Below are positions 327 to 58,142 of a DNA stretch of 64,000 nucleotides, piece after piece. Numbering within the stretch: position 1 is the stretch's first letter; each line of letters begins with the position of its first letter. A program made the position numbers and the translations under genes. The stretch is from a phage. Under the pieces are notes generated by a model that worked only from the letters and a program-made list of their open reading frames with translations, did not search any database and was not told where the DNA came from. The stretch is from NCBI GenBank assembly GCA_012646185.1, contig GCA_012646185.1_4706.1; one strand, given 5' to 3'.

Positions 327-347
327 AGCCTCCCATTACGGGAGGCT
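327..347 (-). terminator. GC-rich stem-loop downstream of gene 360-908
   Basis: Inverted repeat agcctccc / gggaggct with 5-nt loop. Confidence 0.4.
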
Positions 348-359
348 TCATTAATCGGC

Positions 360-908
360 TTATTTCACAAGAACAGCGAATTCGAGAACATAAATAGCTT
401 CATCGTCCATCGGATTTGTTGTGGTATAACCAGCGAAGCAATAGCCCATATCCACGATAAACTCGCTAAGTTTATCGATGACTGATGCCCCGATACGATC
501 GTCAACAGACAGGCGACATTTACGGGTTATGTTTTGCCCGCGAGGAACGCCAGCTAACACGGATAGGAAATGTACGATCCGGTTATTGGTTGCGAACTGC
601 ATGTAATCATCGTAGTACTTAAGGTCTTTCATCGCAGACTCTACCGTCATACGACGACCAGGTGACACATACTCAGAATAAGAATAAGCTGCGATCGTAC
701 GACGATCTTCAGTAAGGTAAGTATTCCCTTCGGGATGATAACTCTCGACTGTTCCGTCTTCATGGGTGACGGTCACAACAGGTGCGCCGTACTCATCGCG
801 ACCGAAATCAATTTTACATTTATCCGAAAGCGGTAGAACCGTACAAGGCTTTGCACTGTTCTCATCAGGGAGATCGTAACCACTCATCATTTTCAAGAAC
901 ATAGACAT
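360..908 (-). CDS. hypothetical protein, paralog of 993-1526
   Basis: 182-aa ORF; N-terminal half shares NAKP, VTH.D, GN.Y, IA.Y.YS with the neighbouring ORF. Confidence 0.5.
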   Translation of the reverse strand: MSMFLKMMSGYDLPDENSAKPCTVLPLSDKCKIDFGRDEYGAPVVTVTHEDGTVESYHPEGNTYLTEDRRTIAAYSYSEYVSPGRRMTVESAMKDLKYYDDYMQFATNNRIVHFLSVLAGVPRGQNITRKCRLSVDDRIGASVIDKLSEFIVDMGYCFAGYTTTNPMDDEAIYVLEFAVLVK

Positions 909-992
909 AATAGAACCTCATGATAATAGATAATAGAAATGATAGATAGTACAACAAATTGAGGGGTATTATCCCACCCCTCGTAGGGATTA

Positions 993-1526
993 CTACTTAA
1001 CGATCGCGATGATTTTGCCACCCGCACCGGCGTAATATGCCGTTAACTTACCAGTAAACAACTCTTGTAAAAGACGATTTACGTTACTAACAAAATTAGG
1101 ATTGTCCGATTTTACAAAATCGATGTTTCGCGTTTGTTTTATATCACGATCGATTAAACGGATTTCCAACAACGCACAAATAAGGCGATCGTCGAGTTTA
1201 CCACTCGCATCCAGCACTTCCCCATACTTCGTAGCACGGACGTCCGCATACATACGGTCAACATCATCCTTCCCAAAACCACAGGAATAGGCATACGTTG
1301 CGATGGTGTTACCATTGTCCATCACATAAACGTTACCACCTGGGTAATCGATAAATCGTTGATCCTTATCACCATGAGTGACGAACTCCAGTGTCGGTCT
1401 ACCTAGTGAATCACGATTGAATTCGATAGTTGTCAAACGGTCAGGCACCACATGTAACGTAAACGGTTTTGCATTGTTACGATCGCTAGTATCGCAGTTA
1501 CCCATTACTTTTACGATAACACTCAT
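993..1526 (-). CDS. hypothetical protein, paralog of 360-908
   Basis: 177-aa ORF; tandem paralog, stem-loop gaggggt/acccctc downstream at 961-981. Confidence 0.5.
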   Translation of the reverse strand: MSVIVKVMGNCDTSDRNNAKPFTLHVVPDRLTTIEFNRDSLGRPTLEFVTHGDKDQRFIDYPGGNVYVMDNGNTIATYAYSCGFGKDDVDRMYADVRATKYGEVLDASGKLDDRLICALLEIRLIDRDIKQTRNIDFVKSDNPNFVSNVNRLLQELFTGKLTAYYAGAGGKIIAIVK

Positions 1527-1600
1527 GTTTTATTCCTTAGTAGTCCTAGTAGTAGTATTGAGGAATTTCACCTCATTAGATAGTCTATTTTGGTAATGTT

Positions 1601-1900
1601 TTACTGAAACAAGACATTAAATTCGACAAGATACCCATCGGATCTATCGCCCCGATAACGGTTGCAGAAAACACCGAATTTCATCAAGAACTCACATAGC
1701 TCTTCGGCTTTGTATAACGGAATACGATTTTCGTCGAGCAGAGGGCAACTATGGCTAACCCGCTCCGACGAATCAACGCAACACAAATAAAGAAGGAACC
1801 GAACAATAGCTCGGTTCTTAGTAAAGCTCTCGAATTCACCCACAGTTCTGAACTCATCGAGGAGCTTTGTCGTTTTCTTCAATCGTTCACGATCGAGCAT
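1601..1900 (-). CDS. hypothetical protein
   Basis: 99-aa ORF. Confidence 0.4.
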   Translation of the reverse strand: MLDRERLKKTTKLLDEFRTVGEFESFTKNRAIVRFLLYLCCVDSSERVSHSCPLLDENRIPLYKAEELCEFLMKFGVFCNRYRGDRSDGYLVEFNVLFQ

Positions 1901-1922
1901 GTTAACCTCAATACGAACATAA

Positions 1923-1954
1923 CCCTCCTCCTTCCCTTACGGGTTGGAGGAGGG
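1923..1954 (-). terminator. GC-rich stem-loop (ccctcctcc...ggaggaggg)
   Basis: Long inverted repeat immediately downstream of gene 1964-2278. Confidence 0.45.
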
Positions 1955-1963
1955 GATATACTG

Positions 1964-6693: not shown

Positions 6694-6956
6694 TATTGAA
6701 TTCCTTTTGATAAGAATAACTGAATATCGGTAAACTGTTCTTCAGGAACATCGTCAGCAGCCGTTAGAACCTTAGAGCCATGTTCATTGAGGTAAGCTTC
6801 CCGTAGACAACGATGACGTCGATTGGCTTCCTGGAACTCAGTGTCCGTCATGTAAACCAGCGTAAACTTCGAACGTTTATTCGGATTGTATCTCTTATTA
6901 CGTTTCTTTGGTTTCTTCGCCATAATAGCCTCGTGAAGGTGGATGGGCACACCCAT
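6693..6956 (-). CDS. small basic protein (start uncertain)
   Basis: 87-aa ORF; lysine/arginine-rich N-terminus MAKKPKKRNKRYNPNKR. Confidence 0.3.
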   Translation of the reverse strand: MGVPIHLHEAIMAKKPKKRNKRYNPNKRSKFTLVYMTDTEFQEANRRHRCLREAYLNEHGSKVLTAADDVPEEQFTDIQLFLSKGIQ

Positions 6957-6986
6957 CCACCTTCCTCCATGTTAAAGTGCGTTCAT

Positions 6987-8332: not shown

Positions 8333-8370
8333 CTTTATCTCCTTAACGGGTGCTGGTAACGCAGCATAAA

Positions 8371-8388
8371 CCCTCCCCGAAGGGAGGG
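8371..8388 (-). terminator. GC-rich stem-loop ccctccc-gaa-gggaggg
   Basis: Perfect 7-bp inverted repeat downstream of gene 8399-8956. Confidence 0.45.
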
Positions 8389-8398: not shown

Positions 8399-8956
8399 TT
8401 ACTCCATCCATACTTCTTCGTCGTAATGATTTTCTATCGCATTACGCCAAAAACGTACGGTGTCCAAACTAATCGGTGCGTAAAAGTGTTGGTCAACGCC
8501 GACGTTAAGTCCGTTGGCCTTCGCTAACATACAGCGATGAATATGACCGAATAAATTAAAGTAGCCTGGGTTTCTTTCGCTGGGCTTATGGCATAGCCAG
8601 TAGGATTCGTCATTGCTAATCGGCAATACCAGCGGGTGCTCATAAACAGCAGCAAACCCCATACCGAGCAGTTTATCACGCCACGCTTCGAAGCTTAATC
8701 CTGTCGCTTTGTATGCGTCTTCGTCCCAATTCCCCATTACCAATTGAACCTGGATATCAGAACGAATGGCTTCCACGAACTCGAACTTACCCCAATCACC
8801 TAAATGCCATAACACACTGTTCTTTGGAAGGTTGTTGATGGCTTTCAGCATATGCTGGTTCATATCGGCGACGCTTGCGAACGGACGGCGTGAATACGTC
8901 CATGTACGCTCGCTATCAAAATGGGTATCCGACATAAAGAAGATGGGTGGGGTCAT
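8399..8956 (-). CDS. calcineurin-like metallophosphoesterase
   Basis: 185-aa ORF; motifs SDTHFD (D-x-H), HLGDW (GD), GNWD (GNHD-like), GHIH (GH-x-H). Confidence 0.7.
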   Translation of the reverse strand: MTPPIFFMSDTHFDSERTWTYSRRPFASVADMNQHMLKAINNLPKNSVLWHLGDWGKFEFVEAIRSDIQVQLVMGNWDEDAYKATGLSFEAWRDKLLGMGFAAVYEHPLVLPISNDESYWLCHKPSERNPGYFNLFGHIHRCMLAKANGLNVGVDQHFYAPISLDTVRFWRNAIENHYDEEVWME

Positions 8957-9456: not shown

Positions 9457-10143
9457 TTAACACATGATTTCACCATGTTTCTTTTCAACATACGTATAAA
9501 CGTCATCCAAATAAGCAATGAGTTTATCACGATCCGCACAGAGCGATTTAATCACCGCAATCTCTTTCATATAAAGCTGCTGACCTAACGCCGGATACGT
9601 AATCCATGCGTAGCCGTCAGGCGCAAATTTAGAAATAAGATAATCAGCGGTTTCCTGTAATGCGAACTCTTTACTCATCTGGCCGTAACGATGTTCGATT
9701 GCACGGATACCAAAACGTTCGTTATCAAGACGACCCATATCCGCCAAACGAAGCACCTGAGAAGCAACCGAGCTACGTGGACCAGAGTACGAGGCACGAT
9801 GTTCAGCAATAAGTACGCGTATCTCCTCGATGTCCTCCGGTGTGAAAATATGCTGCTCGTTACGAAGCAGGATAACCGATGCACGAATACCCCCGATAAG
9901 GTGGTGGTATGTTCTGTTTTCGTGGCAAGCGATATCATGCATAAAAGCAGCGGTTAATAGACGACGACGTTCCGTGGGTCTGATGATCCCAACCACATCA
10001 GCAAGTTCATTTGCCAGTTCAACAACAGCAAGCACATGTTCTTCTTGATGTGCAAGATCGTTCTTCCGAATATTTTCAATTACTTCAGCGCGTGTTTCCT
10101 GAGATAAGAAATTTAAACAATCCAACGAATATAAAGATTTCAT
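9457..10143 (-). CDS. putative HD-domain phosphohydrolase
   Basis: 228-aa ORF; H...HD signature (HQEEHVLAV...AAFMHDIACHE). Confidence 0.5.
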   Translation of the reverse strand: MKSLYSLDCLNFLSQETRAEVIENIRKNDLAHQEEHVLAVVELANELADVVGIIRPTERRRLLTAAFMHDIACHENRTYHHLIGGIRASVILLRNEQHIFTPEDIEEIRVLIAEHRASYSGPRSSVASQVLRLADMGRLDNERFGIRAIEHRYGQMSKEFALQETADYLISKFAPDGYAWITYPALGQQLYMKEIAVIKSLCADRDKLIAYLDDVYTYVEKKHGEIMC

Positions 10144-10184
10144 CGCACGTACCTCTTTGAATCTATTAATAAATTTTCTTTACT

Positions 10185-10208
10185 CACGTAAGTAATATAG
10201 CCGTGAAA
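10185..10208 (-). promoter_or_regulatory. early-promoter-like motif (minus-strand TTTCACGGCTATATTACTTACGTG)
   Basis: Contains TATATTAC; about 45 nt upstream of gene 9457-10143; one of four near-identical copies. Confidence 0.5.
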
Positions 10209-10287
10209 GGATTTGTGTTGGTCCGTCTCGATGCCCATCGTATTTTATGGATTGTCGAATGACGTCATTTTAAGGGACATCCCCGGC

Positions 10288-10316
10288 CTCCTCCCCAGGA
10301 AAGGTGTGGGGAGGAG
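10288..10316 (+). terminator. GC-rich stem-loop followed by T-run
   Basis: ctcctcccca...tggggaggag then ttttt on the plus strand. Confidence 0.35.
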
Positions 10317-10351
10317 TTTTTATCATACATTCTATTAAATCGAGCGCGATT

Positions 10352-12433
10352 ATGTTGGATAGAATCAATCGTTTAATGAACCGAATAACGGTTAAAAATC
10401 AGAGTAACAACACCGTGCATATCGGGGGTATCGATGCCTGGCGTCTTTCAGATGACATTCAGCGAATATGGGGTACCTCCCGATTTATGAAACATATGTT
10501 TCGTAATTTCTCTTCTAGTGGACTCAGTCTCCACAACTTTTACCTTCCCGATTTCGTTTATATTCTCGAAACGATCATCGAAGCAAAGAATACCCGTAGC
10601 AACAAACGCATGCTGAAACACCTTATTGAGGTACTGCTACAGGAAACCTGGCTGCAAAATACCACAATCGAGCAACCTGCAATCCTCGATAAAGCACGCA
10701 TGAACAAAATGCTAACGCTCTCTTTGTTCGATTATCAAGATGAGTTTATCGACATCTATAACCGTAACGTACCTAAATACCGACTGAAAGGATACGTGTG
10801 CGCGATGGGTGCTGGTGCGGGTAAAACAATCACCGCATTGGCTTTAAGCGCCGCAATGAACGTCGACGTATTTGTGGTCTGCTGTCCTAAGAACACCATG
10901 CGTTCAGCATGGCAATCCGATGTAAACAAAGCCATCGTTGACCCCGCAACAGAAACCGCGTTCTGGTCAGACACAATGCCACCATCACAGCTGCAGAAAA
11001 GCGATAAGTATTATTTTCTGCATTACGAATCGATGGGTTTATTAAACGATGTAATGATCAAGCATAAACGCACAGCGAAGCGCGTTCTTATTGTTGTTGA
11101 CGAAAGCCATAACTTCAACGACAAGAACAGCCAACGTTCCCAACGACTGGTTGATCTTGTACAGACAATGCGTCAAACCATGAATGCGGATGTGCACGTC
11201 TTGTTTATGTCGGGTACGCCTGTTAAACAAATGGGTTCTGAGATGATCCCCTGTTTAGGTTGTATCGACCCGATGTTCCAAGGACAGGTGGTCGATAGCT
11301 TCAAATCAATTTACGGTTTAACCAGCAGTCGCGCTAACGATATCCTCAGACATCGTCTTGGGTTCATGATGCATGTCGTACCTAAAGAGGCTTATCGTAA
11401 AACCCGTCCGGAAGTTCAGGACGTTTACGTGAAGCTCCCTAACGGTAGCGATTATACCATCTCAAGTATCCGCGACGACATGGCGGTATTTGTACGCGAT
11501 CGGGCGAAGTATTACAAGGATAACTGGGGGCATTACAGAAAGATTTTTGATGACGCCTTGGACTACTATCGTAAGACTATTCGTACCGATGGTGAACGTA
11601 AAGAGCTATCTCGATACGAATCGATTGTTACTCGTTTCCAGAAAGGTTACGATCCCGTCAGAGACAAAGAAGATGCGATGTTCTGCAATACGTTTGAAAA
11701 ACGAGCGATCATGCCGGTTCTTCCTTCCGATTTAAGGATCGCTTTCAAAGACGCCAAGAGCGTCATCAAGTACGTTGGGTTGAAAATTCAGGGTGAAGCG
11801 TTAGCGCGCGTTCTCGGTGCAGCCCGCATTCGGTGTCATGTCGACATGGTGGAGTACATCGACTTCGAAGGGTACATCAACAACGCTGAAGCCAAAGTGT
11901 TGATCTTCACGTCGTACGTTCAGGTGGTTGAGCGCGTCGACAACCTGCTTCGTGATGCGGGTTTCTTACCGGAACCCATTTACGGGAAGACCAACAAAAA
12001 CATCAACCAAATACTTGCTCGTCTACGCGATGATCCTGACAGCGGTCCCGCTATTGCAACATTTGATAGCTTAGCTGAAGGGGTTCCGATGCTGATGTGT
12101 AATGTCGGCCTTTTCCTGAACAACCCGTGGCGTTCATCCGATGAAATCCAAGCCATCAGCCGTCTCGATCGCGTAGGACAAACGCAGCCTGTTCGGATTT
12201 ATCGTTTCATGTTGGATACAGGAAGCGAGGGTAACGTTTCTACACGTAGCCACGAAATCATGGAGTTAAGTCGACAGCTTGTTGAAGAAATCACGGGTGT
12301 CAAATATGTTGTGAACAAGCAAGATGATGTTAACTTGCAAGAAACGTTGGCAATGGAAGGATACGACCAATACGTTACCGTAAACACCACGGAATACGAT
12401 ATTAAACCACGACCTGCGTTCTTGGAATGGTGA
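10352..12433 (+). CDS. SNF2-family SF2 helicase/ATPase
   Basis: Walker A GAGAGKT, motif II VVDESH, motif VI QAISRLDRVGQ; start placed at first ATG after the stem-loop (track ORF begins at 10304 with GTG inside the hairpin). Confidence 0.65.
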   Translation: MLDRINRLMNRITVKNQSNNTVHIGGIDAWRLSDDIQRIWGTSRFMKHMFRNFSSSGLSLHNFYLPDFVYILETIIEAKNTRSNKRMLKHLIEVLLQETWLQNTTIEQPAILDKARMNKMLTLSLFDYQDEFIDIYNRNVPKYRLKGYVCAMGAGAGKTITALALSAAMNVDVFVVCCPKNTMRSAWQSDVNKAIVDPATETAFWSDTMPPSQLQKSDKYYFLHYESMGLLNDVMIKHKRTAKRVLIVVDESHNFNDKNSQRSQRLVDLVQTMRQTMNADVHVLFMSGTPVKQMGSEMIPCLGCIDPMFQGQVVDSFKSIYGLTSSRANDILRHRLGFMMHVVPKEAYRKTRPEVQDVYVKLPNGSDYTISSIRDDMAVFVRDRAKYYKDNWGHYRKIFDDALDYYRKTIRTDGERKELSRYESIVTRFQKGYDPVRDKEDAMFCNTFEKRAIMPVLPSDLRIAFKDAKSVIKYVGLKIQGEALARVLGAARIRCHVDMVEYIDFEGYINNAEAKVLIFTSYVQVVERVDNLLRDAGFLPEPIYGKTNKNINQILARLRDDPDSGPAIATFDSLAEGVPMLMCNVGLFLNNPWRSSDEIQAISRLDRVGQTQPVRIYRFMLDTGSEGNVSTRSHEIMELSRQLVEEITGVKYVVNKQDDVNLQETLAMEGYDQYVTVNTTEYDIKPRPAFLEW

Positions 12434-12440
12434 TTAAGAA

Positions 12441-12464
12441 GCTCTGCATGATGTCAGGCAGAGC
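12441..12464 (+). terminator. stem-loop gctctgc...gcagagc
   Basis: Inverted repeat then TTTATA immediately after helicase stop. Confidence 0.4.
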
Positions 12465-12534
12465 TTTATACTTGCATTTGTTGCAACAATCGTATGACGT
12501 ATACGCGTTGTACTTATTTAATAAGGCAGAATAA

Positions 12535-13999: not shown

Positions 14000-14011
14000 T
14001 AGATAGCATAT

Positions 14012-14045
14012 CTTCCTCCCTACCCATAACGGGCGGGGAGGAAGG
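14012..14045. terminator. GC-rich stem-loop between convergent genes
   Basis: cttcctccc...ggggaggaagg followed by ttt. Confidence 0.4.
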
Positions 14046-14061
14046 TTTATGTCAATTTAAC

Positions 14062-15290: not shown

Positions 15291-15358
15291 ACATGCTCCG
15301 GTTATAAGGGCCTACATCGAGGCCCCTCATTGATTTTTGATTCCACCAAACGCTATCG

Positions 15359-16933
15359 TTACAATTCAAAATCTTCATCGATAACACGCTGGGTAAGCAC
15401 TTTGTCGCTGAAGAACTCCACCTTGCGCTGATGGTATTTACGGTGCGCTTCGATAGAAGTACATACCAGATACCAGAACGTTGGCGTCATTCCTTCAAAC
15501 TTCCCTTTCAGCTGACGCAGTCGCCCCAACACCTGAATGTTGCCGGTTCGTGACCCCATCGCTAACGTCATGAACGTCATCACCAAGTCAGGGAGGTCGA
15601 TACCTGTACCTGCCGATTTCACCGTCGTAACGCTAATATCGTTATCCAGCAAGACCATGAAATCTTCTTCAGCAGTATAAGGACCGATCTCTAGCTCAGG
15701 AATACGCTCACTGAGATAGTGCGACAACGACTTACACATATCAACGGTTGCACAATACACCAGCATCTTCATGCCTTCCTGATACTGGTTCATGAAACCT
15801 TTGATGATAACGGTATAGATGAAGTTAAAATACGCGAGTTTGAGTTGCTTGTTCTTCATGATAGACTGTTCGAATATCGTGTGTGAATAAGCTCCGCCAA
15901 ACCCTTTGTATCTGACTTTATCTGTACTGCGTAGTCGATATGTTACCGCATTTACCGCAATATATTTCTTGTATTCGCCTTTTGCATAACGGGCTTCTTT
16001 CGGATACATCAAATACAACATCTGTTCGATAAACGGATCATCGGACACCGCCGTTGCCGACAGATAAATGATTTCCGGAATACTGGCGTAACACTTGACC
16101 TTAAACAAGAAATGCAATGCTTCGTGACACTCGTCATGAATCAGCAAACCTATGCCGGTCTTTTCCCAAAACTCAGCGGGATGAAAGGCATATGGCGCAA
16201 CGCAGTTATTCTTCTCGTAGTCCGCAATATAACGTTGGAACATGTTCAAGGAGAACAATGCGATTTTGAAGTCGAGCTCACCTTGTTCAACCAAGGTTTG
16301 AAACTCCAGCATGCTGTAACGAGGAATGTCGGGATGTGGTGGATCCTCCTTAGCGTTCCCGCGTATCTCAATAACGTCCCCTGGTTCCATCCCGAAGAAG
16401 TTCAGCAGTGAGCTTCGCCAACCTGGCATGTATCTCGGCGACAGAATGATACCCGTCCGTACACCACGTCGGAAGGTAATCTCCTGCGACATGGCCGTTT
16501 TTCCTGACCCCGTTTGAGCGGTGTTTAGGCTCATTCTGAAGGGGGTATCCTTACCCCCGTCCATGTACTCCAACCATTCTTGCTGATCTTGACGCCATGG
16601 AAACTTCCATTTCTTTACGAACTCCACTTCTTTACCTGGTACCGGATCGTGATAGACGATTTCCAACCACTCTTTTCGTATCCCTCGGGAAAAGATAAAA
16701 TCCAAAAACGATTTCAACTGTTCACGGAGTAAGTATACCTCGCTATAATCGCTTCTCGCCGCGGCATACGTGTTTATGGTATCGGTAACCATTCTCCGTG
16801 TACGAGGGTCACGCCGTTTCCTCAGATGCAAACAACGGTCTCGAAGGTAATGGCCTATCAAATGGGCAAATCGAAGTCCGTATCCGCTCAGCCTCATGCC
16901 ATGCGAGAAGACGTCGATACGAGCTAACTTCAT
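15359..16933 (-). CDS. SF2 DExH-box helicase
   Basis: 524-aa ORF; Walker A AQTGSGKT, motif II IHDECHE, SAT, motif VI QVLGRLRQ. Confidence 0.65.
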   Translation of the reverse strand: MKLARIDVFSHGMRLSGYGLRFAHLIGHYLRDRCLHLRKRRDPRTRRMVTDTINTYAAARSDYSEVYLLREQLKSFLDFIFSRGIRKEWLEIVYHDPVPGKEVEFVKKWKFPWRQDQQEWLEYMDGGKDTPFRMSLNTAQTGSGKTAMSQEITFRRGVRTGIILSPRYMPGWRSSLLNFFGMEPGDVIEIRGNAKEDPPHPDIPRYSMLEFQTLVEQGELDFKIALFSLNMFQRYIADYEKNNCVAPYAFHPAEFWEKTGIGLLIHDECHEALHFLFKVKCYASIPEIIYLSATAVSDDPFIEQMLYLMYPKEARYAKGEYKKYIAVNAVTYRLRSTDKVRYKGFGGAYSHTIFEQSIMKNKQLKLAYFNFIYTVIIKGFMNQYQEGMKMLVYCATVDMCKSLSHYLSERIPELEIGPYTAEEDFMVLLDNDISVTTVKSAGTGIDLPDLVMTFMTLAMGSRTGNIQVLGRLRQLKGKFEGMTPTFWYLVCTSIEAHRKYHQRKVEFFSDKVLTQRVIDEDFEL

Positions 16934-19567: not shown

Positions 19568-19681
19568 AATCTCATTTCCTCTTCTACGTAGAAATAGATG
19601 ACATGTTGGATATACGTTGCCTTTGCATATATTGCTTTATTTCCGTCAGAAATAACGGAAAATAAAAACAACGACATAATT

Positions 19682-19711
19682 CCCTCCCACCTCCACATGG
19701 GAGAGGGAGGG
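19682..19711 (-). terminator. GC-rich stem-loop ccctccc...gggaggg
   Basis: Inverted repeat downstream of gene 19725-20087. Confidence 0.4.
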
Positions 19712-19724
19712 TTATTCGTGTTTA

Positions 19725-20119: not shown

Positions 20120-20545
20120 TTAAAACTTTAAAACTTTTTCGATACGATGGTTGACGAGTTCATTGAACGACTCTTCAGCTTGTTCGATGATTTCATCAAC
20201 GTCGATATCTAATTGTTGGGGTTGGATAACATGCTCTTTCATGGTTTCCAGCCAGTATTCGGCTTTAATCATGACGTTAGCGACGTGTTCGACCTGGCTG
20301 CGTATGTCGACGATCTGGCAGTCAGGATTGTTAATATCGATGATGTGTCCGTGGTGGTTGATAAAACCTAGCTTATTTGATGCCCTTACCGCATCGCGGG
20401 TAAGTTCTTGCAAGATTAAATTATTAACGTAGTTCACTGCTACGGAACGATTTTCGTTATCACTCATACCAGGGATCCTCTTTAAGTCATCACATTCTAG
20501 TGTTAAGCAGTTAAAATAAACCGTTCCTTTTATCAGCATAAACAT
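20120..20545 (-). CDS. hypothetical protein
   Basis: 141-aa ORF. Confidence 0.45.
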   Translation of the reverse strand: MFMLIKGTVYFNCLTLECDDLKRIPGMSDNENRSVAVNYVNNLILQELTRDAVRASNKLGFINHHGHIIDINNPDCQIVDIRSQVEHVANVMIKAEYWLETMKEHVIQPQQLDIDVDEIIEQAEESFNELVNHRIEKVLKF

Positions 20546-20585
20546 CCTCCTCCCACCACATGGGCAGGAGGAGGCGTAATATGCA

Positions 20586-39475: not shown

Positions 39476-40570
39476 ATGTTTCGTGTTTTAAATAACCTCC
39501 CGCGAACATCATCGGGTGTGCAACCCGTCCCTCAGAAAGACTATCTAATACGCGAAGTTCAAAGAAACCTACAGACAATCCAGAACCACTATCAAGGTTT
39601 TACCTTCGCGGTTCAGAGCGATCACATCCTTGCGTTGCTGCTCGCACAGCTCCCTATGAGATACGACATCTCAGTACAAACTTACTACGACATGATTCTC
39701 GATCTTACCCCAGAATTGGGTAATCGTGTCAAGTTGACAACATCAAGATACGCGGGTAAGTTATTCGACGGTGCTTTCTATCCGGGATTGCACGAAGCTA
39801 TTATCGCAACCGGTGAAAGTCGTCTTATTTCACGTGACGTTCTTGACAACTGGCGTAATTGGTCACCAGTTAGAATCGTGACGCACCCATACGCAAATCT
39901 TCGTTACATTCCTCTTCACCGAAAGCAGGTTGAAGATGGGCGAGGTTTTGCAGTCATTATGGTTGACGTACCTTTATTAGCGCTACAGTATCGAATGTGG
40001 TCTTTGATCATGGGTCATAACGTCGACGGTAAATGGGTGGTTAAAGAACCGGTTACAAGCTTCCTTGCGAGTTTTCCGTTGGTTAACGCATTATACTCAC
40101 ACAACGATGTTGTTATACGTAATCGTTGTTTGTGGGTATCTCCGGCTAAGAATCCACTCAAATCACCCATTTACGTTAACGACCTTGATAACGTATTCAG
40201 CCAAGTCGTTCTGTCCGTACAGCATCATTTATTACGAAGAAGACGAAGCTACACCGATATGCTTAAACAGATACCGAGTTTATACGGAGATCAGTACCAA
40301 GCAACCCGAATGGGTTACACCGTCGATCTTCGACAAACACGATGGGCAAGGGATCTGGGTTGTCTGTCATTATGGCAACAACTCGTCACATTGCAAAACG
40401 TATCTGAAAGCGTCGGGTTCAGCAGTCAAATCGATAACGACCTGTACCGTGCTGCCGACCGGAGTCTAAAAGAAGGTAACTGGGAATCCTCTCCGTTACC
40501 TGGCGATTTAAGACGTGAAGTTATCGCACAGGTTGCCGACCTCTTAAAAATTCTTCCCGCTGGTGCATAA
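39476..40570 (+). CDS. hypothetical protein
   Basis: 364-aa plus-strand ORF. Confidence 0.5.
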   Translation: MFRVLNNLPRTSSGVQPVPQKDYLIREVQRNLQTIQNHYQGFTFAVQSDHILALLLAQLPMRYDISVQTYYDMILDLTPELGNRVKLTTSRYAGKLFDGAFYPGLHEAIIATGESRLISRDVLDNWRNWSPVRIVTHPYANLRYIPLHRKQVEDGRGFAVIMVDVPLLALQYRMWSLIMGHNVDGKWVVKEPVTSFLASFPLVNALYSHNDVVIRNRCLWVSPAKNPLKSPIYVNDLDNVFSQVVLSVQHHLLRRRRSYTDMLKQIPSLYGDQYQATRMGYTVDLRQTRWARDLGCLSLWQQLVTLQNVSESVGFSSQIDNDLYRAADRSLKEGNWESSPLPGDLRREVIAQVADLLKILPAGA

Positions 40571-40591: not shown

Positions 40592-40620
40592 TCCTCCCAA
40601 CCCGTAAGGGAAGGGAGGAT
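40592..40620. terminator. GC-rich stem-loop between convergent genes
   Basis: tcctcccaaccc-gtaa-gggaagggagga. Confidence 0.4.
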
Positions 40621-42790: not shown

Positions 42791-42865
42791 AAATCCTCCA
42801 AAAGTTATTTAGTCTGTCTACATCATCTCGTATATCTGTTAAAAAAGAAGGACGGCATAAAAAAG

Positions 42866-42893
42866 AACCGATCCAGCCGAAGCCAGATCGGTT
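42866..42893 (-). terminator. rho-independent-type terminator (minus strand)
   Basis: aaccgatc...gatcggtt 8-bp stem followed on the minus strand by a U-run (plus-strand aaaaaag at 42855-42861). Confidence 0.5.
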
Positions 42894-46887: not shown

Positions 46888-46940
46888 GCTTTCTCCTACA
46901 CGGCATAAAAGCCTGCCCCGAAGGACAGGCTCGATAGAAC

Positions 46941-48223: not shown

Positions 48224-49066
48224 ATGGGTGCTATTGACTACAGTGTAGATCGTATCTGTCGTACAATACCGGCAGATATCCTACAGTATTGCTATATCGA
48301 TCGTTACGACTGGCGTAATCGCTATCCTCGTTCCGTAGAAGACATCATTACCGATTGGGTAATCCGTAAACGGGTTATCGGCGACATCGATATCTACGGG
48401 GGGCTACAAACCGTTATCCCCCTTGATGATGCCGGTGTCACTATCGAAGAAGTCACCATTAACTGTTATGTTTTCCACATTCCGTTGGAAGCCACACAGG
48501 GACGTTATATCACGTCCGCATTATCCATTATTTCAGGGAGCGTGAACAACTACGGAATAAACTATAACGGGCAATGGGGTGCTTTCAACCAAACCCAGTT
48601 TCAACGTCAGCTTTGTGGGTGGAACCCCGCAAGCAACACGTTACAGCAAGGGATGAACGCGTTCGGTCCCATGAACGTTCTTAGTACAGCCAACGTTGAT
48701 ATCATCGCCCCTAACACCATCATGGTGAACAACGTCACGCCTGTACAATTTCCCCTGAGCCTACGCTGTTTCCTTGCCCACGATCCGGAACTTACCAACC
48801 TCAGCATGGAGGTTTGGAACGACTTCTACAAACTCTGTTTATACGCCACGCAAAGTGACATCTACAACAGAACCGTTATCCGTCTCGATAGAGGTGTTAC
48901 AGCACAAGGACAAGAAGTCGGTGCATTCAAGGAATACATCGATCGCTTTGCCGATGCTGAAAACACATATCAGGAATTCCTGAACGAAACGTGGGCTGGC
49001 GTTGCCGCCTGGAACGATCCGCAAACTAAACGTCGCGCCATTCGACTACAAACCGGTTACTTCTGA
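48224..49066 (+). CDS. hypothetical protein
   Basis: 280-aa plus-strand ORF. Confidence 0.5.
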   Translation: MGAIDYSVDRICRTIPADILQYCYIDRYDWRNRYPRSVEDIITDWVIRKRVIGDIDIYGGLQTVIPLDDAGVTIEEVTINCYVFHIPLEATQGRYITSALSIISGSVNNYGINYNGQWGAFNQTQFQRQLCGWNPASNTLQQGMNAFGPMNVLSTANVDIIAPNTIMVNNVTPVQFPLSLRCFLAHDPELTNLSMEVWNDFYKLCLYATQSDIYNRTVIRLDRGVTAQGQEVGAFKEYIDRFADAENTYQEFLNETWAGVAAWNDPQTKRRAIRLQTGYF

Positions 49067-49593
49067 TTAACGACAGCTTCCTCCCTCGGAGTTTTCGAGG
49101 GAGGTATTTGCCGTTTGAACACTTTCAGCATGTTCGCAAAATCAGCAGCAATAATACAGGCCGAGGTTGATAGCTTATTACTGAAAATGAGATCGTCCGG
49201 TAAACAATCGAACTGAATACCGTATTGCGTCTTTGTCTCATCAACGATCAATGACGGTGTCGATCTTGTCTTCGCGATGTCGGTGATATACAAACGTAGA
49301 AATAATTCACCGTCTTCGCTATCCATAAAACGATAAGCGTTACCAGAAAACGCAACATGCGGCGTAACGATAAATTGAACACGATCGTCGGTCGGATGGA
49401 TATTTAACCAACGTTCGATATCATTACTACTCACATTTCGCATATTTACTACGGTAAAAGCAAATAGCGTATCGTGATGTTTGGAATAATGCAGCACGTA
49501 CGCCGCACCTTTCTTTTTGTGAATCCCTTCAATGTATTCTATTGTCGTATAGCCAGATTTATATAGCTTTACTTGCGGTTTATCACTCATCAT
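49057..49593 (-). CDS. hypothetical protein
   Basis: Start moved to ATG (MMSDKPQ) that overlaps the stop of the upstream ORF (ATGATGA arrangement). Confidence 0.45.
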   Translation of the reverse strand: MMSDKPQVKLYKSGYTTIEYIEGIHKKKGAAYVLHYSKHHDTLFAFTVVNMRNVSSNDIERWLNIHPTDDRVQFIVTPHVAFSGNAYRFMDSEDGELFLRLYITDIAKTRSTPSLIVDETKTQYGIQFDCLPDDLIFSNKLSTSACIIAADFANMLKVFKRQIPPSKTPREEAVVNQK

Positions 49594-52129: not shown

Positions 52130-52384
52130 GATAGGAATCCTTAGTATGTTTGATATGTTGTTTAATTGACATATTAAGTTTAAAAGAGGTTATGTTTTAC
52201 GTATTGTTAATAACGTATTCTTATCTCTATTAAGTTATGTTCTATCTAAAGATAGTAAACAGATATAATGCTCCCCACCTCCCCATTCTCCCAAGTAATA
52301 CTGGCCTACCGGCCCTCTCCTTTTTAAGGGAGAGAGTAAGCATTCAGTATTGCTCAAATGAATAAGCAAAACAGTATAAACTTA

Positions 52385-52408
52385 CCGTCTCGAGTTATCT
52401 CGAGACGG
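52385..52408 (-). terminator. perfect 10-bp stem-loop ccgtctcgag-ttat-ctcgagacgg
   Basis: Downstream of gene 52438-52791. Confidence 0.5.
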
Positions 52409-52791: not shown

Positions 52792-53375
52792 GGGACATAA
52801 ACCTCCATCAACATCGCATAAAGCGCACCAAGCCCGTGTAGGACTTGGTTAGGTGCAAAGGTTGGTGTGTAACATACTTGTTCGGTTGGTGTTTGTTGAC
52901 GTAAGTCTAACGGATCCCCGTTGATAAGCATCTGCAGGAGATCAGCATCATCTTGCAATGTGTCTTCATCGATATACGCATCAACACAAAGCAGTCGGTG
53001 TAACTGTTCGGGTTTAATTGAAATACCTACAACCATGCAGTTGTTGTAGGTGGCGTTGTCCAGAAAGAAGTGGATGACGCCCGCTTGAGGATCGCCACCG
53101 TAGTGAAGCCAGCGCGTAAAACCAGCCGACATCATCCATAGCGGGTTGTGTTGTAACGCACTGACGACGCGGGTCTCGAAATCCAAACCAAACTTCTGGA
53201 AGATCGCACCCATCTGGAAACGATCTTCATCGAGACGGTAGCGGAATATACAAGCATCCGATCCCGATGAGTTATCATACACCGAAAGATACCCACGATG
53301 GATTTCCACGGTAACATTGTTGTCGTCAAGCGTGGCGCTCGCAACGCCGTTAGAAAAGGTTGGAACAAAGCTCAT
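52776..53375 (-). CDS. hypothetical protein
   Basis: 199-aa ORF. Confidence 0.45.
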   Translation of the reverse strand: MSFVPTFSNGVASATLDDNNVTVEIHRGYLSVYDNSSGSDACIFRYRLDEDRFQMGAIFQKFGLDFETRVVSALQHNPLWMMSAGFTRWLHYGGDPQAGVIHFFLDNATYNNCMVVGISIKPEQLHRLLCVDAYIDEDTLQDDADLLQMLINGDPLDLRQQTPTEQVCYTPTFAPNQVLHGLGALYAMLMEVYVPCFKN

Positions 53376-53923
53376 CTTGTAATCCTTAATTTACCTGAAT
53401 GAATTATCGTTGATGGGTCCACGACGCGACCGTATTTCGCGTTACGTAATACACGATGCCCAAAGAAGTCAGCGGTTTCCAAAACAACCGTGTAACAACC
53501 CAGCTGATGTTGGTGTCCCCAAAACCGTTCAATGGGAATCCAGCAGGGCGACATGCCTTTGTGTCGCCAATCCGTAACACAACCGAATTCAGCAAACTGT
53601 TCAGTAAACCACTCGTCAATGTCGGTATCCGTAAAGAGAAATACGTGGTTTTTAACCAGATAAGCGAACCCAGGATAAAAAAGCTGAGGGTCATCCGGGT
53701 CACGGAGATAAACACGAAGTTTGTCTAGCGTACCCTCGATAACGATCGTATCGGGTAATCCTGGCGGCGTGAACCGAAGTTGGAAGTTATCCTCGTTTGC
53801 CGAGGCGTTAACCAAATACCCCAATTGAAGGGGCCGATGCAATTCGAAAAGGTTGAACGTTAATGCATATTCGATATACTCTAATCCTATATTCATGTCT
53901 GACCTATGTGGTATGGACGGCAT
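53372..53923 (-). CDS. hypothetical protein
   Basis: 183-aa ORF. Confidence 0.45.
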   Translation of the reverse strand: MPSIPHRSDMNIGLEYIEYALTFNLFELHRPLQLGYLVNASANEDNFQLRFTPPGLPDTIVIEGTLDKLRVYLRDPDDPQLFYPGFAYLVKNHVFLFTDTDIDEWFTEQFAEFGCVTDWRHKGMSPCWIPIERFWGHQHQLGCYTVVLETADFFGHRVLRNAKYGRVVDPSTIIHSGKLRITR

Positions 53924-54028: not shown

Positions 54029-55273
54029 ATGCTCATGTCTTCTATTTTACAGGTGTTTAATGCGCATGCGGAAGGCATTGACATCGACGAGTATTTTGTT
54101 AATCAGGTTATCCGTTACGCGACACGCTTCCGTACGCAAGACCAAGAACACATGCGTTTTTTCGGTGGGGTTCTGTTAGGTGTACAGAAAATCCGATTCA
54201 CAACAAGACATAACGATACATGGTTTTCCGACGTCTTGATGATGGATGAAGAAAGCTTACGGCGCGATTTGAGTAAACTGCCCTTCTACAATACGCAGAC
54301 CAACCGTGTTGCCTCAAACGCCTTTAACCTAAGTTGCTGTTGGTTGCTTTATGCGATCTTCCACAGCAAACAAATCAAAAAAGAAAAGGTTCGTGAAGCC
54401 GGGATGCTTGCAGCAATGCAAGTCCTCCATTATAAATTCATTTGCGGTCTGGTAGCACGACGTTATCCTTATAACGCCGATCCGGCTATCGCCATTAAAG
54501 CGTACGATGAGTTAACACTCAAATCAGGCATCAAGCGCATGAATAGCTGGAATGAGTACATCGACGAACGCTGTAATGCCATCATTGCGCGTAATAGTAC
54601 ACATTTCAGTCGTTGGTCAACCCTGGAACCTGATAGCGTCGCCGAACGTTTTGTGCGTGATGTGAATACCGGAATCCGTAAGGTTATCAACCGTATCACC
54701 GATACGTACTACGCGATGTACGAAGAAGGTAAGAAGATAGGCACGTCTTCTCAAACTGTAGAGTTAGACGATGGTCTCGCTGTTCGCGATATTAAACGCA
54801 ACGAAACCACTTATCGTCAATATCTGTTCGAAATCGCTTATGACCGAACAAGTTTCGTTAAACGTGAACTCATGGTCGTCATCCTCGACGTGCATCATAC
54901 TACCAATCTTTTATCCCTTGAGCGAGCGTTAAGCTATATCAGCGCTAACGTAGAACGACCGACAAGAGACGGAAAACAGGTCTCTCAGATGTTGCGGCTT
55001 GTAATGGAGCATGCTATCGAGTATATCATCTTGAATAAGGTCGATATGCGCGATCTTACGTTCTTATTCTACATGCGTAACGTGTACACGTCCAACCGTA
55101 CCAGCAACCCGAAACTGTTAGAACTGCGTAAAATTGGCTCTGAAGTCATTAAGAAAGCAACCAATGCGAGAAACGACGCTGAAGCTGCGGCGACACGCAC
55201 CGGTGTCTTTCTGTATATCCTGCTTCGTGTGTTTAGCCGTAACTATTACGTTCGACGTGCGATGTCACGTTAA
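54029..55273 (+). CDS. hypothetical protein
   Basis: 414-aa plus-strand ORF; gagggag before ATG. Confidence 0.5.
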   Translation: MLMSSILQVFNAHAEGIDIDEYFVNQVIRYATRFRTQDQEHMRFFGGVLLGVQKIRFTTRHNDTWFSDVLMMDEESLRRDLSKLPFYNTQTNRVASNAFNLSCCWLLYAIFHSKQIKKEKVREAGMLAAMQVLHYKFICGLVARRYPYNADPAIAIKAYDELTLKSGIKRMNSWNEYIDERCNAIIARNSTHFSRWSTLEPDSVAERFVRDVNTGIRKVINRITDTYYAMYEEGKKIGTSSQTVELDDGLAVRDIKRNETTYRQYLFEIAYDRTSFVKRELMVVILDVHHTTNLLSLERALSYISANVERPTRDGKQVSQMLRLVMEHAIEYIILNKVDMRDLTFLFYMRNVYTSNRTSNPKLLELRKIGSEVIKKATNARNDAEAAATRTGVFLYILLRVFSRNYYVRRAMSR

Positions 55274-55425
55274 CAATGTAACGGTAAAACTTTACTGACG
55301 TTGGTTATTATTTGAAGCATAGGGCTTCACCCAGGAGTACCATCCCTTTAAGTCGTTTGTCCTCTCCTGGTTAACTGTCGTTCTCTCACAGTGCTCGACA
55401 GACCAAAAATGCTCAGGCCTCATAG

Positions 55426-55454
55426 CCTCCTCTGGGAATGGAACCCAGAGGAGG
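55426..55454. terminator. perfect 11-bp stem-loop cctcctctggg-aatggaa-cccagaggagg between convergent genes
   Basis: Inverted repeat in the 190-nt non-coding region. Confidence 0.5.
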
Positions 55455-55466
55455 ACTATGTTTGCC

Positions 55467-55787
55467 TTAAAATTCAATGCGACCTTTTGTCGTAAACAAT
55501 ACACCTCTTTGCCAACAGAAAAGATCCTCCGATTGAGCGCAAACACGAATACCCGCATCGAATAGATGTTTTGTTCTGGCGCTTAAACAATCAGGATCTT
55601 CTACATACAACAGAAGACGTTGGCATTTATTTTGAATGCGTTCGACAAGGATGTTCTTATCGCTTAAAATAAAATGCGCGTTATCTGTTAAGTTATCGTC
55701 GGTTTCCAGCTGCCCGACAAGTTTGATTAAAATACGCAATTGCTCAAGTGTGTCATGATCAAGTGAATCACCCATGGCGTACCTCAA
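55467..55787 (-). CDS. hypothetical protein
   Basis: 106-aa ORF. Confidence 0.4.
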   Translation of the reverse strand: MRYAMGDSLDHDTLEQLRILIKLVGQLETDDNLTDNAHFILSDKNILVERIQNKCQRLLLYVEDPDCLSARTKHLFDAGIRVCAQSEDLFCWQRGVLFTTKGRIEF

Positions 55788-55860
55788 CGTTATACGTCGT
55801 TTGTATTATAATACGCTATCGTCTCCCCGCCTGTATTAACGGGGAGTCTGCAAACTACTC

Positions 55861-58092
55861 TTAGAAAAAACCGCCCGGACGGTATTGACCCATCGTCATC
55901 CACGCATTACGAGAAATATTCCGTTCATTCGAAGAGCGGCTTATTTGACGATAAGTATTCGCTCGTTCCTCCCTTGCTTTCGTGATCATCGCATCAATAG
56001 AAACAGCCGCTGAATCCTCCCCACGTATTTTTCCTTTATACGTAAGAAGCTCTGCCTCCAATCGATCCAAGATAAGGCCGTTGGTTTCGGTCTTAAGCAA
56101 CTCATAGATTTCAGCAACGCGTTGACGTAGCTTCGCCTGCTGTTGGTTAAGATACGCTTCATACGGATCGATTTCACCCGTTACAGATGCTGGTAAACGA
56201 CTCATGACTTTAAGTGGATCGATACCGTAATGGATCTGTTTCTTAGCACGCTTGATGAACCACATCGCTAACATCCATGCGAACGTCATGTCATCGTGCA
56301 TTCCATCCTGGTGATCAACACGCCCATCTTTGATAACCAATCCAAGGATCTCGGAACACAACATCTTATCACGTAATTGCCCGCGGGTTTCTACAATACC
56401 TTCCATCAAGATGTCGGAATACAACTCCATACGTTTGCGTGCATCCGTTGTGAAGCCTAAATGCCGTTTACGTTGAGCATACCAACTTTCATCACGCATA
56501 CTCAATGGTAATTTCAGGTCTTCGAACATCGCTGGGTTATCAGCATGTCTGTCCACAATCGTGTTGTATACGCGTTTGAACACGTCGATGCCCGCTTGCC
56601 GCAAGAACTCTTCAATCGCATCTAACAACATGATTGCGCTGCTTTTACGTTCAGGAATCAACGTAACGTTCTTAAAACGCATCATGAAGTTGGCCATCCA
56701 ACGAGCAAAAGAAAGCAGGCTCAGTTTATTAAAACGTCCCGTCGCGACAACTTCTGCTGTTTCCACATCCACCATCACCAAACCGATAGCGTCACGACCG
56801 ATCGCGTCACTGGTGTCTAAACCAGCAACCACCTTATTGTTCTGCATGTATGTCTCGATTTGACCTCGAGGTATATACCAGTTGATGCAGTAGCCTTCAG
56901 GTGAGATCTCGATATGGTCGATTTCACGTTGTCCTGCCATGATCATCTCAACCATCTCAGCGGTTAACGGGCTTTCTGCTGAACCGTTGGTCCAGATGTT
57001 CATGTAGTCGCGGTCTTTCTGAAGTTTATCACCTTCCGTTTCGTTCATGGTTTTTGCTAACCATTCATCACTGAATCCCAATTGGGCATGGTTCCATTGT
57101 GCCCCGATCCTGACGGTCGCTTTGCTGAGCTCGCACGGTACGTTGTTCAATACCGTCTGATGCAGATGCTTTTCGTTACGGCAGTCAAAGAAACTTTCAG
57201 AGAACGGCGCTGAACGCATGAAAACTTCATAAGCCCATTTGCCTTCGCGTTTATCCAATTCACCTGCTGTTGTCGTATAGATGATACTTGTCAGGTCGCC
57301 GTTGCTTAATGCTTCATCGCGTGCCGCACCCATCGCACCGATACCAGCAGGAACAATAATTTCGATGTATTTCGTAAACGCGGTTTCGTCGCTATGGAAT
57401 AGCGGGGTTGTTAGACCACGACCGATGTTTGTTGCTTGTTTCTTATCCGAACGTGGAATCTTTACCGATAACTTGTTCTTAAACCGCGTGTAGGTCACGT
57501 TCTCTTTGTTCGATGAATCGCGACTATCCAGCGTCCAGAGATATGCAGGCAACAGATCGCGTATACTACGCACGTCTTCTACCGTTTTCGTACGGGCATC
57601 ACCGTCTTTTGTTAACTGAATAACCTCGGTGTTTCGACTACGAACATAGGTTAGATAACAGAACAACCCTAACATGGTCATGGATTTACCCGTCTGACGT
57701 ATCTGTATCTGATACCAGTTCGTTCGGGTAAATATCCCCCAGAGCATCGGAATGTTACCACGGTTAGCACGGAATGAAATTTTGTTATCACCCGCTTTAG
57801 CCGGAACGCGCATCACTTCACGGAAGAAGTACCATGGATTAAGATAGCATTCCGCACTGATCATCTGAATCTGTTCTGACGTCAAATTCGGTGCGTGGGG
57901 ATCAACACCAATCAATCTTGGGTTTAATAACGCCATGAAAAACGCAGAGTTCCGGACACCGAATTCACGACGATACAAGATCGCTAAATCACGCCAACTT
58001 GTGTTTGTTGTTTCCCAGTGTGGAACAGCCTGAGGAAAATAATCCCAATCTTCCTCAAACAGGATGATTTTCTTCGGATCGACAATCGACAT
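55861..58092 (-). CDS. terminase large subunit (ATPase plus nuclease)
   Basis: 743-aa ORF; Walker A-like IRQTGKSMT, nuclease-like GLDTSDAIGRDAIGLVMVD and C-terminal VDHQDGMHDD. Confidence 0.6.
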   Translation of the reverse strand: MSIVDPKKIILFEEDWDYFPQAVPHWETTNTSWRDLAILYRREFGVRNSAFFMALLNPRLIGVDPHAPNLTSEQIQMISAECYLNPWYFFREVMRVPAKAGDNKISFRANRGNIPMLWGIFTRTNWYQIQIRQTGKSMTMLGLFCYLTYVRSRNTEVIQLTKDGDARTKTVEDVRSIRDLLPAYLWTLDSRDSSNKENVTYTRFKNKLSVKIPRSDKKQATNIGRGLTTPLFHSDETAFTKYIEIIVPAGIGAMGAARDEALSNGDLTSIIYTTTAGELDKREGKWAYEVFMRSAPFSESFFDCRNEKHLHQTVLNNVPCELSKATVRIGAQWNHAQLGFSDEWLAKTMNETEGDKLQKDRDYMNIWTNGSAESPLTAEMVEMIMAGQREIDHIEISPEGYCINWYIPRGQIETYMQNNKVVAGLDTSDAIGRDAIGLVMVDVETAEVVATGRFNKLSLLSFARWMANFMMRFKNVTLIPERKSSAIMLLDAIEEFLRQAGIDVFKRVYNTIVDRHADNPAMFEDLKLPLSMRDESWYAQRKRHLGFTTDARKRMELYSDILMEGIVETRGQLRDKMLCSEILGLVIKDGRVDHQDGMHDDMTFAWMLAMWFIKRAKKQIHYGIDPLKVMSRLPASVTGEIDPYEAYLNQQQAKLRQRVAEIYELLKTETNGLILDRLEAELLTYKGKIRGEDSAAVSIDAMITKAREERANTYRQISRSSNERNISRNAWMTMGQYRPGGFF

Positions 58093-58142
58093 ATAAACTC
58101 CTCCGATGGAGGGTGCCGGGCACCCTCCATCGTTGTATTACC

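Follow-up and report, generated by a model that had tools for sequence, protein, structure and literature searches.

GC-rich hairpins followed by a TTATG box as candidate phiKZ-type transcription terminators in a Goslar-like Escherichia coli jumbo phage

Here we report an analysis of GC-rich hairpins at gene boundaries in a 64,000-nt stretch of phage DNA (contig GCA_012646185.1_4706.1 of GenBank assembly GCA_012646185.1; hereafter, the window), in which an initial annotation had noticed a family of CCCTCC/GGGAGG inverted repeats. An 8-kb piece of the window is 97.4% identical to Escherichia phage vB_EcoM_Goslar and had no other match in the phage collection. Goslar is a nucleus-forming, phiKZ-like jumbo phage of E. 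coli (a chimallivirus), and its annotation of the matching region includes the nuclear shell protein as well as beta/beta' subunits of RNA polymerase. Nearly all genes of the window are carried by the minus strand, including those for the DNA polymerase, the shell protein chimallin and the beta'-like subunit of the non-virion RNA polymerase (nvRNAP); this order of DNA polymerase, chimallin and RNA polymerase subunit genes is common to the window, phiKZ, RAY, Eowyn and SA002. The chimallin of the window is ~24% identical to the phiKZ protein, and relatives found via chimallin in IMG/VR are 97-98% identical, with all other chimalliviruses at or below 29% protein identity. We consider it likely that the hairpins are the Goslar-lineage copies of a transcription terminator common to the phiKZ-like nucleus-forming jumbo phages. 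The phiKZ-type terminator family is already known, and what is new is its description for a Goslar-like phage of E. coli.

The repeating unit is an RNA hairpin rich in GC, with 7-13 pairs, a loop of 3-7 nt and, in most cases, CCYCCC/GGGRGG arms. Inverted repeats are present at all 15 sites for which the initial annotation gave coordinates, and the check that it proposed, folding energy against shuffled controls, gave -15.9 to -26.6 kcal/mol for these sites, with z from -2.7 to -6.2, when RNA of the relevant strand was folded and compared with dinucleotide shuffles of the same sequence. In a strict count over the whole window (at least 6 perfect pairs), CCYCC...GGRGG hairpins occurred 12 times with the C-rich arm first and three times with the G-rich arm first, against means of 0.23 and 0.22 (maxima 3 and 2), respectively, in 300 dinucleotide shuffles of the window. 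The suggested total of at least 18 sites holds once close variants are counted (961-982, 6935-6964, 32874-32900, 52315-52334 and 55426-55454). The 12:3 arm polarity is not universal, the G-rich arm often being first in Eowyn and RAY. In arms made purely of purines or of pyrimidines, self-mispairing is presumably impossible, GG/CC stacking is very stable and short palindromes are absent. Phage T4 was too poor in strong compact hairpins (three in 50 kb) to be informative as a negative control.

Intergenic DNA makes up 8.5% of the window, yet it holds 18 of the 31 local folds with an energy of -17 kcal/mol or lower and seven of the eight that reach -21 kcal/mol or lower. A hairpin of -12 kcal/mol or lower was located at ~27 of 67 gene junctions and at all four convergent junctions (three via the junction scan, plus 49079-49103), and the gap from stop codon to stem, read on the coding strand, is ~10-30 nt. 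Thus, the family is real and punctuates gene boundaries as first described, but its members are not all intergenic and its stems are more varied than the CCCTCC type. The hairpin at 49079-49103 falls within the last codons of the minus-strand open reading frame (ORF) 49057..49593, that at 20546-20574 abuts a possible start codon, and that at 10288-10316 lies at a divergent junction. Five sites with other stems (42866-42893, 46910-46931, 12438-12467, 15308-15325 and 52385-52408) share a tail with the CCCTCC copies, and because these unrelated stems keep it, the tail defines the family better than stem composition does.

This tail, a conserved TTATG-YYG box directly 3' of the stems, had been overlooked in the initial annotation. 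The box, (T)TTATG-C-Y-G(-T), begins 0-4 nt past the stem on the transcribed strand, as in CCCTCCCTTCGGGGAGGG-tTTATGCTGCG for the 8371 copy, ...GGGGAGGG-tTTATGCCGCA for the 34339 copy, and ...GGGAGGCT-cTTATGCCGTC and ...GGGAGGG-aaTTATGTCGTT elsewhere. TTATGYYG occurs 16 times on the two strands of the window, 8-9 of these directly after a strong hairpin. Hairpins of -13 kcal/mol or lower were followed by TTATG within 4 nt in 10 cases, compared to 0.93 +/- 0.95 in shuffles, and by TTAT in 20 cases, compared to 3.75, while scrambled 5-mers of the same composition as TTATG were found 0-6 times after hairpins. Fixed patterns recovered little of the family. The fixed-spacing pattern GGRGGNNTTATKYYG was too narrow, with three matches against 0.7 expected, and the published 30-nt phiKZ consensus, which is insensitive to variation of stem and loop length, had a single window match at up to 3 mismatches (317-346, with 2). 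The same search returned only three matches in 41 kb of phiKZ itself; the consensus being too rigid, a scan for structure plus tail was used instead.

That consensus, BCCYCCCCHWWDGGGRRGGBYTTATKYYGT, was derived from 61 terminator regions defined by transcript 3' ends (Putzeys et al. 2024, PMC10914365), out of 133 termination regions that ONT-cappable-seq (Oxford Nanopore Technologies) detected in phiKZ (PMC10914365). The window elements share with it the CCYCCC/GGGRGG arms, the short loop and a TTAT right after the stem followed by G/T-Y-Y-G-T, as well as the mostly intergenic placement after genes and the two-sided copies between convergent genes; both phages are chimalliviruses with two multisubunit RNA polymerases of their own, one virion and one non-virion. 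The window phage differs in genus and host (Goslar-like, E. coli), its stems are often longer and can contain an internal bulged module (1923, 14012 and 40592), and its spacer and loop lengths vary. Of the 132 termination sites mapped in phage 201phi2-1, 59 carry motif A, which by its authors' account 'strongly resembles' that of phiKZ, and 15 sites are bidirectional (PMC11512511); our comparison with motif A runs via the phiKZ consensus on the basis of this stated resemblance. Eight 201phi2-1 terminators, picked for motif variety, stopped transcription in a host reporter trap (PMC11512511), and longer stems gave stronger termination in that assay.

To survey other chimalliviruses, we compared stretches of ~24-42 kb around the chimallin genes of phiKZ, RAY, Eowyn, SA002, RSL2 and LucasX. 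A compact GC hairpin followed by TTATGCCGT(C) or TTATGCTG was found in all six stretches, with the tail consensus TTATGCYG in phiKZ, RAY, Eowyn, SA002 and LucasX; RSL2 yielded two sites only. When the 8-nt segments behind strong hairpins of seven chimallivirus stretches were searched without a preset motif, TATG was the most enriched 4-mer (12.3-fold), followed by TTAT, ATGC and TGCC at ~6-fold each. A MAFFT alignment of 29 sites from the other phages was anchored on the tail only and left the stems misaligned. Chimalliviruses of at least seven host genera carry the phiKZ terminator signal with its TATGCYG box, a breadth which argues for recognition of the box by the conserved phage polymerases.

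The elements are oriented. At tandem junctions the tail lies on the sense strand, co-oriented with the upstream gene, and the sense RNA folds better than the antisense RNA at 16 of 18 such junctions (mean difference -2.8 kcal/mol, Wilcoxon p=0.0014), compared to a coding-sequence background of -0.5 kcal/mol with a 51% split. The greater stability of the sense RNA is due to G-U pairs, and this asymmetry points to a directional function at the RNA level. At convergent junctions the two strands fold about equally, and perfect palindromes with TATG/TTAT on both sides separate convergent genes at 14012, 23568 and 55426 in the window; two-sided copies were also found in phiKZ (stretch L006, 8576/8599 and 17429/17453) and RAY (8796/8824). 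Compared to Goslar, the stems differ at 1.6% of positions and the loops at 11.5% (p=2e-6). The structure-preserving changes relative to close relatives are few: at 961 a paired G/C insertion in Goslar adds one stem pair, and at 34339 a G-U pair is changed to A-U in the IMG/VR relative L005. At 52385 the loop differs from that of Goslar at three of four bases with an identical stem, and the 19682 copy has CTAT for TTAT in Goslar with TATG retained. The inner module of the 1923 hairpin reads TTCCCTTACGGGTT in the window and is present as its exact reverse complement in Goslar, and that of the 40592 hairpin is flipped in relative L005. Hairpins 1923-1954 and 40592-40620 share this inner module and are therefore paralogous copies.

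Whole-hairpin inversions of this kind, which separate close relatives at 1923 and 40592, and the two copies with the same inner module, which amount to palindrome dynamics at the DNA level, are what would be expected if the elements acted as DNA, namely as mobile palindromes resembling REP (repetitive extragenic palindromic) or MITE (miniature inverted-repeat transposable element) sequences, as cruciforms, or as recombination or replication signals. The G-U pairing is asymmetric in favor of the sense strand, the tail is specific to one strand and points the same way as the upstream gene, the position just past stop codons is fixed, and the copies have neither flanking direct repeats nor conserved flanks besides the tail. 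We rejected action at the DNA level as the main explanation on the grounds of G-U asymmetry, oriented tail and fixed placement, and regard it as extremely improbable.

The initial annotation had remarked that most copies lack a clear U-run, which is correct, and had suggested that they may be RNA-processing or stability elements rather than classical terminators. A canonical U-tract would have five or more T among the first 8 nt beyond the stem, which is not the pattern of these elements, whose tails read TTATGCCG and similar. A generic terminator scan of positions 1-20000 flagged only two of the sites discussed here, 8371-8384 and 961-982, and its total of 18 equals the shuffle expectation (18.8). 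Searches of both strands of the whole window against Rfam 15 gave no match at or above the gathering threshold, and a tRNA scan found nothing. The elements resemble canonical Rho-independent terminators in having a GC-rich hairpin in the nascent RNA a few nucleotides from the release point, in forming two-sided versions between convergent genes, and in the 3'-end stabilization expected of the hairpin. They differ in that the canonical U-tract of 7-9 nt is replaced with a U/A stretch of 3-4 nt and the conserved TATGCYG box, and generic terminator scans pass over most of them. A short conserved sequence specific to a phage polymerase that helps to stop transcription is known from the T7 class II signal ATCTGTT. 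The class II signals are hairpin-free and act on a single-subunit polymerase, while the box described here is coupled to a hairpin and its role is putative.

Our verdict is that the elements are probable phage-type intrinsic terminators without a U-run. Their structure, placement and strand asymmetry, and the identity of their motif with elements at the mapped 3' ends of two relatives, are direct observations; judged from the sequence, the elements are real and directional and very likely form transcript ends. According to the proposed mechanism, the hairpin would form in the nascent RNA, and the short weak UUUAU together with the TATG box would slow or destabilize the multisubunit RNA polymerase of the phage, so that the transcript is released. 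The hairpin left at the 3' end would shield the mRNA from 3' exonucleases, and partial read-through would set the output of each downstream gene. The copies between convergent genes, palindromic and with a box on each side, would work in both directions.

Several points weigh against this interpretation. The function assigned to the hairpins in this phage would follow from motif homology and sequence statistics, the 3' ends having been mapped in relatives, and a search of a limited literature collection found no transcriptome of Goslar-like phages. TTAT is present within 0-5 nt at only ~14 of ~24 hairpins, those lacking it including 6935, 24935, 32874, 40592, 55823 and 58104, and the 10288 copy is located at a divergent junction where no annotated gene ends. 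The stems are not significantly more conserved than their flanks relative to Goslar (1.6% vs 2.9%, p=0.18), and true covariation tests are ruled out since the relatives are either too close or too far. Finally, the 3' ends in the relatives come from long reads, in which termination and trimming by exonucleases as far as a hairpin look alike.

This last ambiguity leaves room for a reading in which the elements are only stabilizers or processing sites of RNA 3' ends, transcription passes through them, and the 3' ends in the relatives are decay products. It is also consistent with the missing U-run, with a homolog of 3'-5' exoribonucleases encoded nearby (Goslar gp147), and with a peak between chmA and the next gene in the enhanced crosslinking and immunoprecipitation (eCLIP) data for PhiPA3 ChmC, which suggests a stable short RNA (PMC11077065). 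A block to exonucleases, however, needs no conserved strand-specific TTATGCYG box 3' of the stem. Moreover, the 201phi2-1 terminators lowered downstream reporter expression in the trap, and that assay used terminators whose efficiency, calculated by the authors from read-through, was >99% (PMC11512511). Because the same motif sits at the transcript 3' ends of phiKZ, and given the trap results, processing or stability in place of termination is not supported, although the elements are indeed not of the hairpin plus U-run type; we find this reading quite unlikely. A protective role at the 3' end is compatible with termination as a second role and is not an alternative to it.

The box contains exactly the TATG motif that serves phiKZ nvRNAP as its late promoter, in which the G is the +1 position; a pocket of the phiKZ beta-like subunit gp123 holds the non-template TATG (PMC12809450). 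The elements could accordingly be composite, with the hairpin ending the upstream transcript and the tail TATG acting as an nvRNAP promoter whose G is the start of the next gene's transcript. The enrichment of TATG after strong hairpins agrees with this, and many copies are located 20-110 nt upstream of the next start codon. Yet TATG flanks both sides of the hairpins at convergent genes, where initiation would give antisense RNA only, and no GC hairpin precedes the model late promoter P119L in its oligonucleotide sequence. In addition, upstream regions as a whole show no excess of TATG (27 observed, 30 expected), and its use by the Goslar nvRNAP would be an extrapolation from phiKZ. We therefore hold a composite terminator-promoter to be unlikely, the two-sided TATG at convergent genes and its lack of upstream enrichment favoring a role of the box in pausing or release.

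A tentative extension of the terminator reading, which we consider possible but doubtful, is that the tail is the nvRNAP promoter TATG reused as a termination signal and not a degenerate U-tract. The pocket of the beta-like subunit would then recapture non-template TATG during elongation, and the polymerase would pause just when the hairpin upstream takes shape. Release would thereby be an intrinsic, sequence-specific property of the polymerase, and the same site could possibly restart transcription. A search of a limited literature collection found no paper linking the terminator box to the TATG promoter. If true, such reuse would account for termination by phiKZ-like polymerases in the absence of a U-run and for the conservation of the hairpin plus TATGCCGT across phages of Pseudomonas, E. 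coli, Erwinia, Salmonella, Xanthomonas and Ralstonia, and a real link would make promoter recognition and termination in these polymerases directly testable.

A tail ATG behind GGGAGGG also mimics a ribosome-binding site and start codon, as seen at 34333-34335, 20543-20545 and ~19675-19677. If each gene is taken as the longest ORF, genes start at the tail ATG at 34335 and 20545, and a 31-aa Goslar ORF (gp167) is annotated from the tail ATG of the 19682 copy. The GGGAGGG arm could thus be a Shine-Dalgarno (SD) sequence for the tail ATG that the CCCTCCC arm masks, making the element a translational switch. However, ORFs that begin with the tail ATG at 327, 1923 and 8371 are only 9-13 codons long, an SD of the downstream gene is present outside the hairpin (8332, 40570-side, 58092 and 6920), the box is present at convergent gene ends where nothing is translated, and members with other stems (42866 and 46910) keep the tail. 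Since the tail ORFs are short, the genes have separate SDs and the box occurs at untranslated places, SD masking was rejected as the main explanation; we judge it highly improbable. The starts at 34335 and 20545 and the gp167 ORF are probably mis-set starts or spurious small ORFs, and GGGAGGG-TTT-ATG has probably yielded false or over-long ORFs, which is a hazard for annotation.

The copy at 37276-37299 had been placed between a chimallin candidate and a polymerase gene, with the proposal that it could attenuate read-through. The position is confirmed, with the correction that the polymerase is the nvRNAP beta'-like subunit and not a DNA polymerase. In five of the six chimalliviruses (phiKZ, RAY, Eowyn, SA002 and LucasX), a hairpin likewise separates the chimallin gene from the RNA polymerase subunit gene downstream, and the window copy is identical in three close relatives. 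This recurrence and identity support the earlier remark, the hairpin being well placed to limit read-through. The PhiPA3 ChmC eCLIP peak mentioned above is not assigned to a gene (PMC11077065); its position is that of the conserved post-chimallin hairpin (the equivalent of 37234-37325 in the window), and an abundant stable short RNA may be present there. The hairpins may also be tags at RNA 3' ends for mRNA export or for recognition by ChmC; against this, ChmC eCLIP found no motif, and binding was enriched near start codons (PMC11077065).

With these elements, transcription units can be delimited from the sequence alone in E. coli jumbo phages of the Goslar type, and both E. coli constructs and Goslar engineering could draw on the sites as candidate terminators that are strong, compact and two-sided. 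The elements of the window are listed in Table 1 with the three marker genes; only a few of these hairpins are marked in the Goslar GenBank record, as generic predicted terminators.

Table 1. Marker genes (mapped to the Goslar annotation) and hairpin elements of the window. Stems and tails are given on the strand indicated; energies are in kcal/mol.
Positions	Strand	Feature	Tail after stem	Context	Folding energy
35929..37233	-	nvRNAP beta'-like subunit gene			
37326..39221	-	chimallin (nuclear shell protein) gene			
40637..42790	-	DNA polymerase gene			
316..347	-	hairpin AGCCTCCCG-TAAT-GGGAGGCT	cTTATGCCGTC	after gene 360..908; phiKZ consensus with 2 mismatches; terminator at equivalent place in Goslar record	-15.9, z -4.5
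961..982	-	hairpin GAGGGGT...ACCCCTC; conventional-looking variant	T-rich, AATTTGTTGT	terminator annotated in Goslar record	
1913..1954	-	hairpin CCCTCCTCC..GGAGGAGGG	TTATGTTCGT		-25.2
6935..6964	-	13-bp hairpin GAAGGTGGATGGG..CCCATCCACCTTC	no adjacent TTAT box	between genes	-25.4, z -6.1
8360..8388	-	hairpin CCCTCCC-TTCG-GGGAGGG	tTTATGCTGCG	10 nt past stop of 8399..8956	
10288..10329	+	hairpin CTCCTCCCC..GGGGAGGAG	tttTTATCATACA	divergent junction; plus-strand terminator in Goslar record	
12438..12475	+	hairpin GAAGCTCTGC..GCAGAGCTT; non-CCCTCC stem	TTATACTTGC	after plus-strand helicase gene 10352..12433; terminator annotated in Goslar record	
14002..14056	both	two-sided; hairpin 14012-14045	plus tTTATGTCAAT; minus aTATGCTATC	convergent genes	-26.0 / -25.0 on two strands
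15304..15325	-	hairpin GGGCCTCGATGTAGGCCC	TTAT(AACCGG)	after gene 15359..16933	
19670..19721	-	hairpin 19682-19711	sense aaTTATGTCGTT; plus strand also has TTATTCGTGT		
20532..20574	-	hairpin CCTCCTCC..GGGAGGAGG	atgTTTATGCTGAT		sense -23.6 vs antisense -17.6
23556..23608	both	two-sided	plus catTTATGCCGTC; minus gTTATCTTAAG	between small plus-strand gene (Goslar gp172) and 23627..24907 (-)	
24935..24956	-	hairpin GGTCCCC..GGGGACC	no TTAT box	after gene 24963..26549	
32870..32904	-	14 pairs in sense RNA only, via G-U pairs	no adjacent TTAT; T-run 13 nt further on		-25.9; sense -25.0 vs antisense -12.3
34328..34363	-	hairpin CCCTCCCTGC..GCGGGGAGGG	tTTATGCCGCA		
37266..37299	-	hairpin GGGAGGGAGG-GCAA-CCTCCCTCCC	TTATACGTCC	between chimallin gene and nvRNAP beta'-like gene	-23.8, z -5.3
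40592..40620	both	hairpin	plus-strand TTATG 11 nt away	between convergent 39476..40570 (+) and DNA polymerase 40637..42790 (-)	
42851..42893	-	hairpin AACCGATCTGGC-TTCG-GCTGGATCGGTT; non-CCCTCC stem, same tail	cttttTTATGCCGTC		-18.3, z -6.6
46899..46931	-	hairpin AGCCTGTCC-TTCG-GGGCAGGCT	tTTATGCCGTG		
49079..49103	both	hairpin	plus gTATTTGCCGT	overlapping convergent ends 48224..49066 (+) / 49057..49593 (-)	
52370..52408	-	hairpin CCGTCTCGAG-ATAA-CTCGAGACGG	taagtTTATACTGTT		
55421..55460	both	two-sided; 11-bp hairpin	cTATG on both strands	convergent genes	-25.1, z -6.2
55823..55846	-	hairpin CTCCCCG..CGGGGAG	no adjacent TTAT	after gene 55861..58092	
58104..58132	-	13-bp hairpin CGATGGAGGGTGC..GCACCCTCCATCG		SD and start of next gene after (gaggagtttatATG)	-26.6

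Several further features were observed near the hairpins. The 10288-10316 hairpin, followed by TTTTTATC, lies in the divergent junction 10144-10351. On one side of this junction is a minus-strand operon with a 32-aa ORF (10140..10238) that overlaps the next start, and on the other is the plus-strand helicase gene; could this copy be an insulator against antisense transcripts? Another divergent junction, between 53372..53923 (-) and 54029..55273 (+), contains at 53923-53963 a hairpin of -21 kcal/mol, TGCATTGCCTTCC...GGAAGGTAATGTA, with neither a CCCTCC stem nor a TTATG tail, which could be an operator or a structure in a 5' untranslated region. The hairpins 52315-52334 and 52385-52408 are located in a 308-nt non-coding gap (52130-52437) together with a G-rich tract, gggagaatggggaggtggggagc, and a small RNA or a promoter could reside in this gap. 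Downstream of the 55823-55846 hairpin, the sense strand of 55780-55822 reads gcgTATTATAATACaaacg, which resembles TATATTAC, the AT-rich early-promoter core quoted for phiKZ-like phages (PMC7058600); judging by this resemblance, an early promoter may lie right behind the terminator. Downstream of the nvRNAP beta'-like gene, a gap of 911 nt (35018-35928) contains a tandem duplication of ~370 bp (76-93% identity) that extends into the 3' end of this gene. The Goslar counterpart of the gap is ~605 nt long, and in Goslar a group I intron and an HNH endonuclease are located between this segment and the polymerase gene, with no Rfam intron match in the window.

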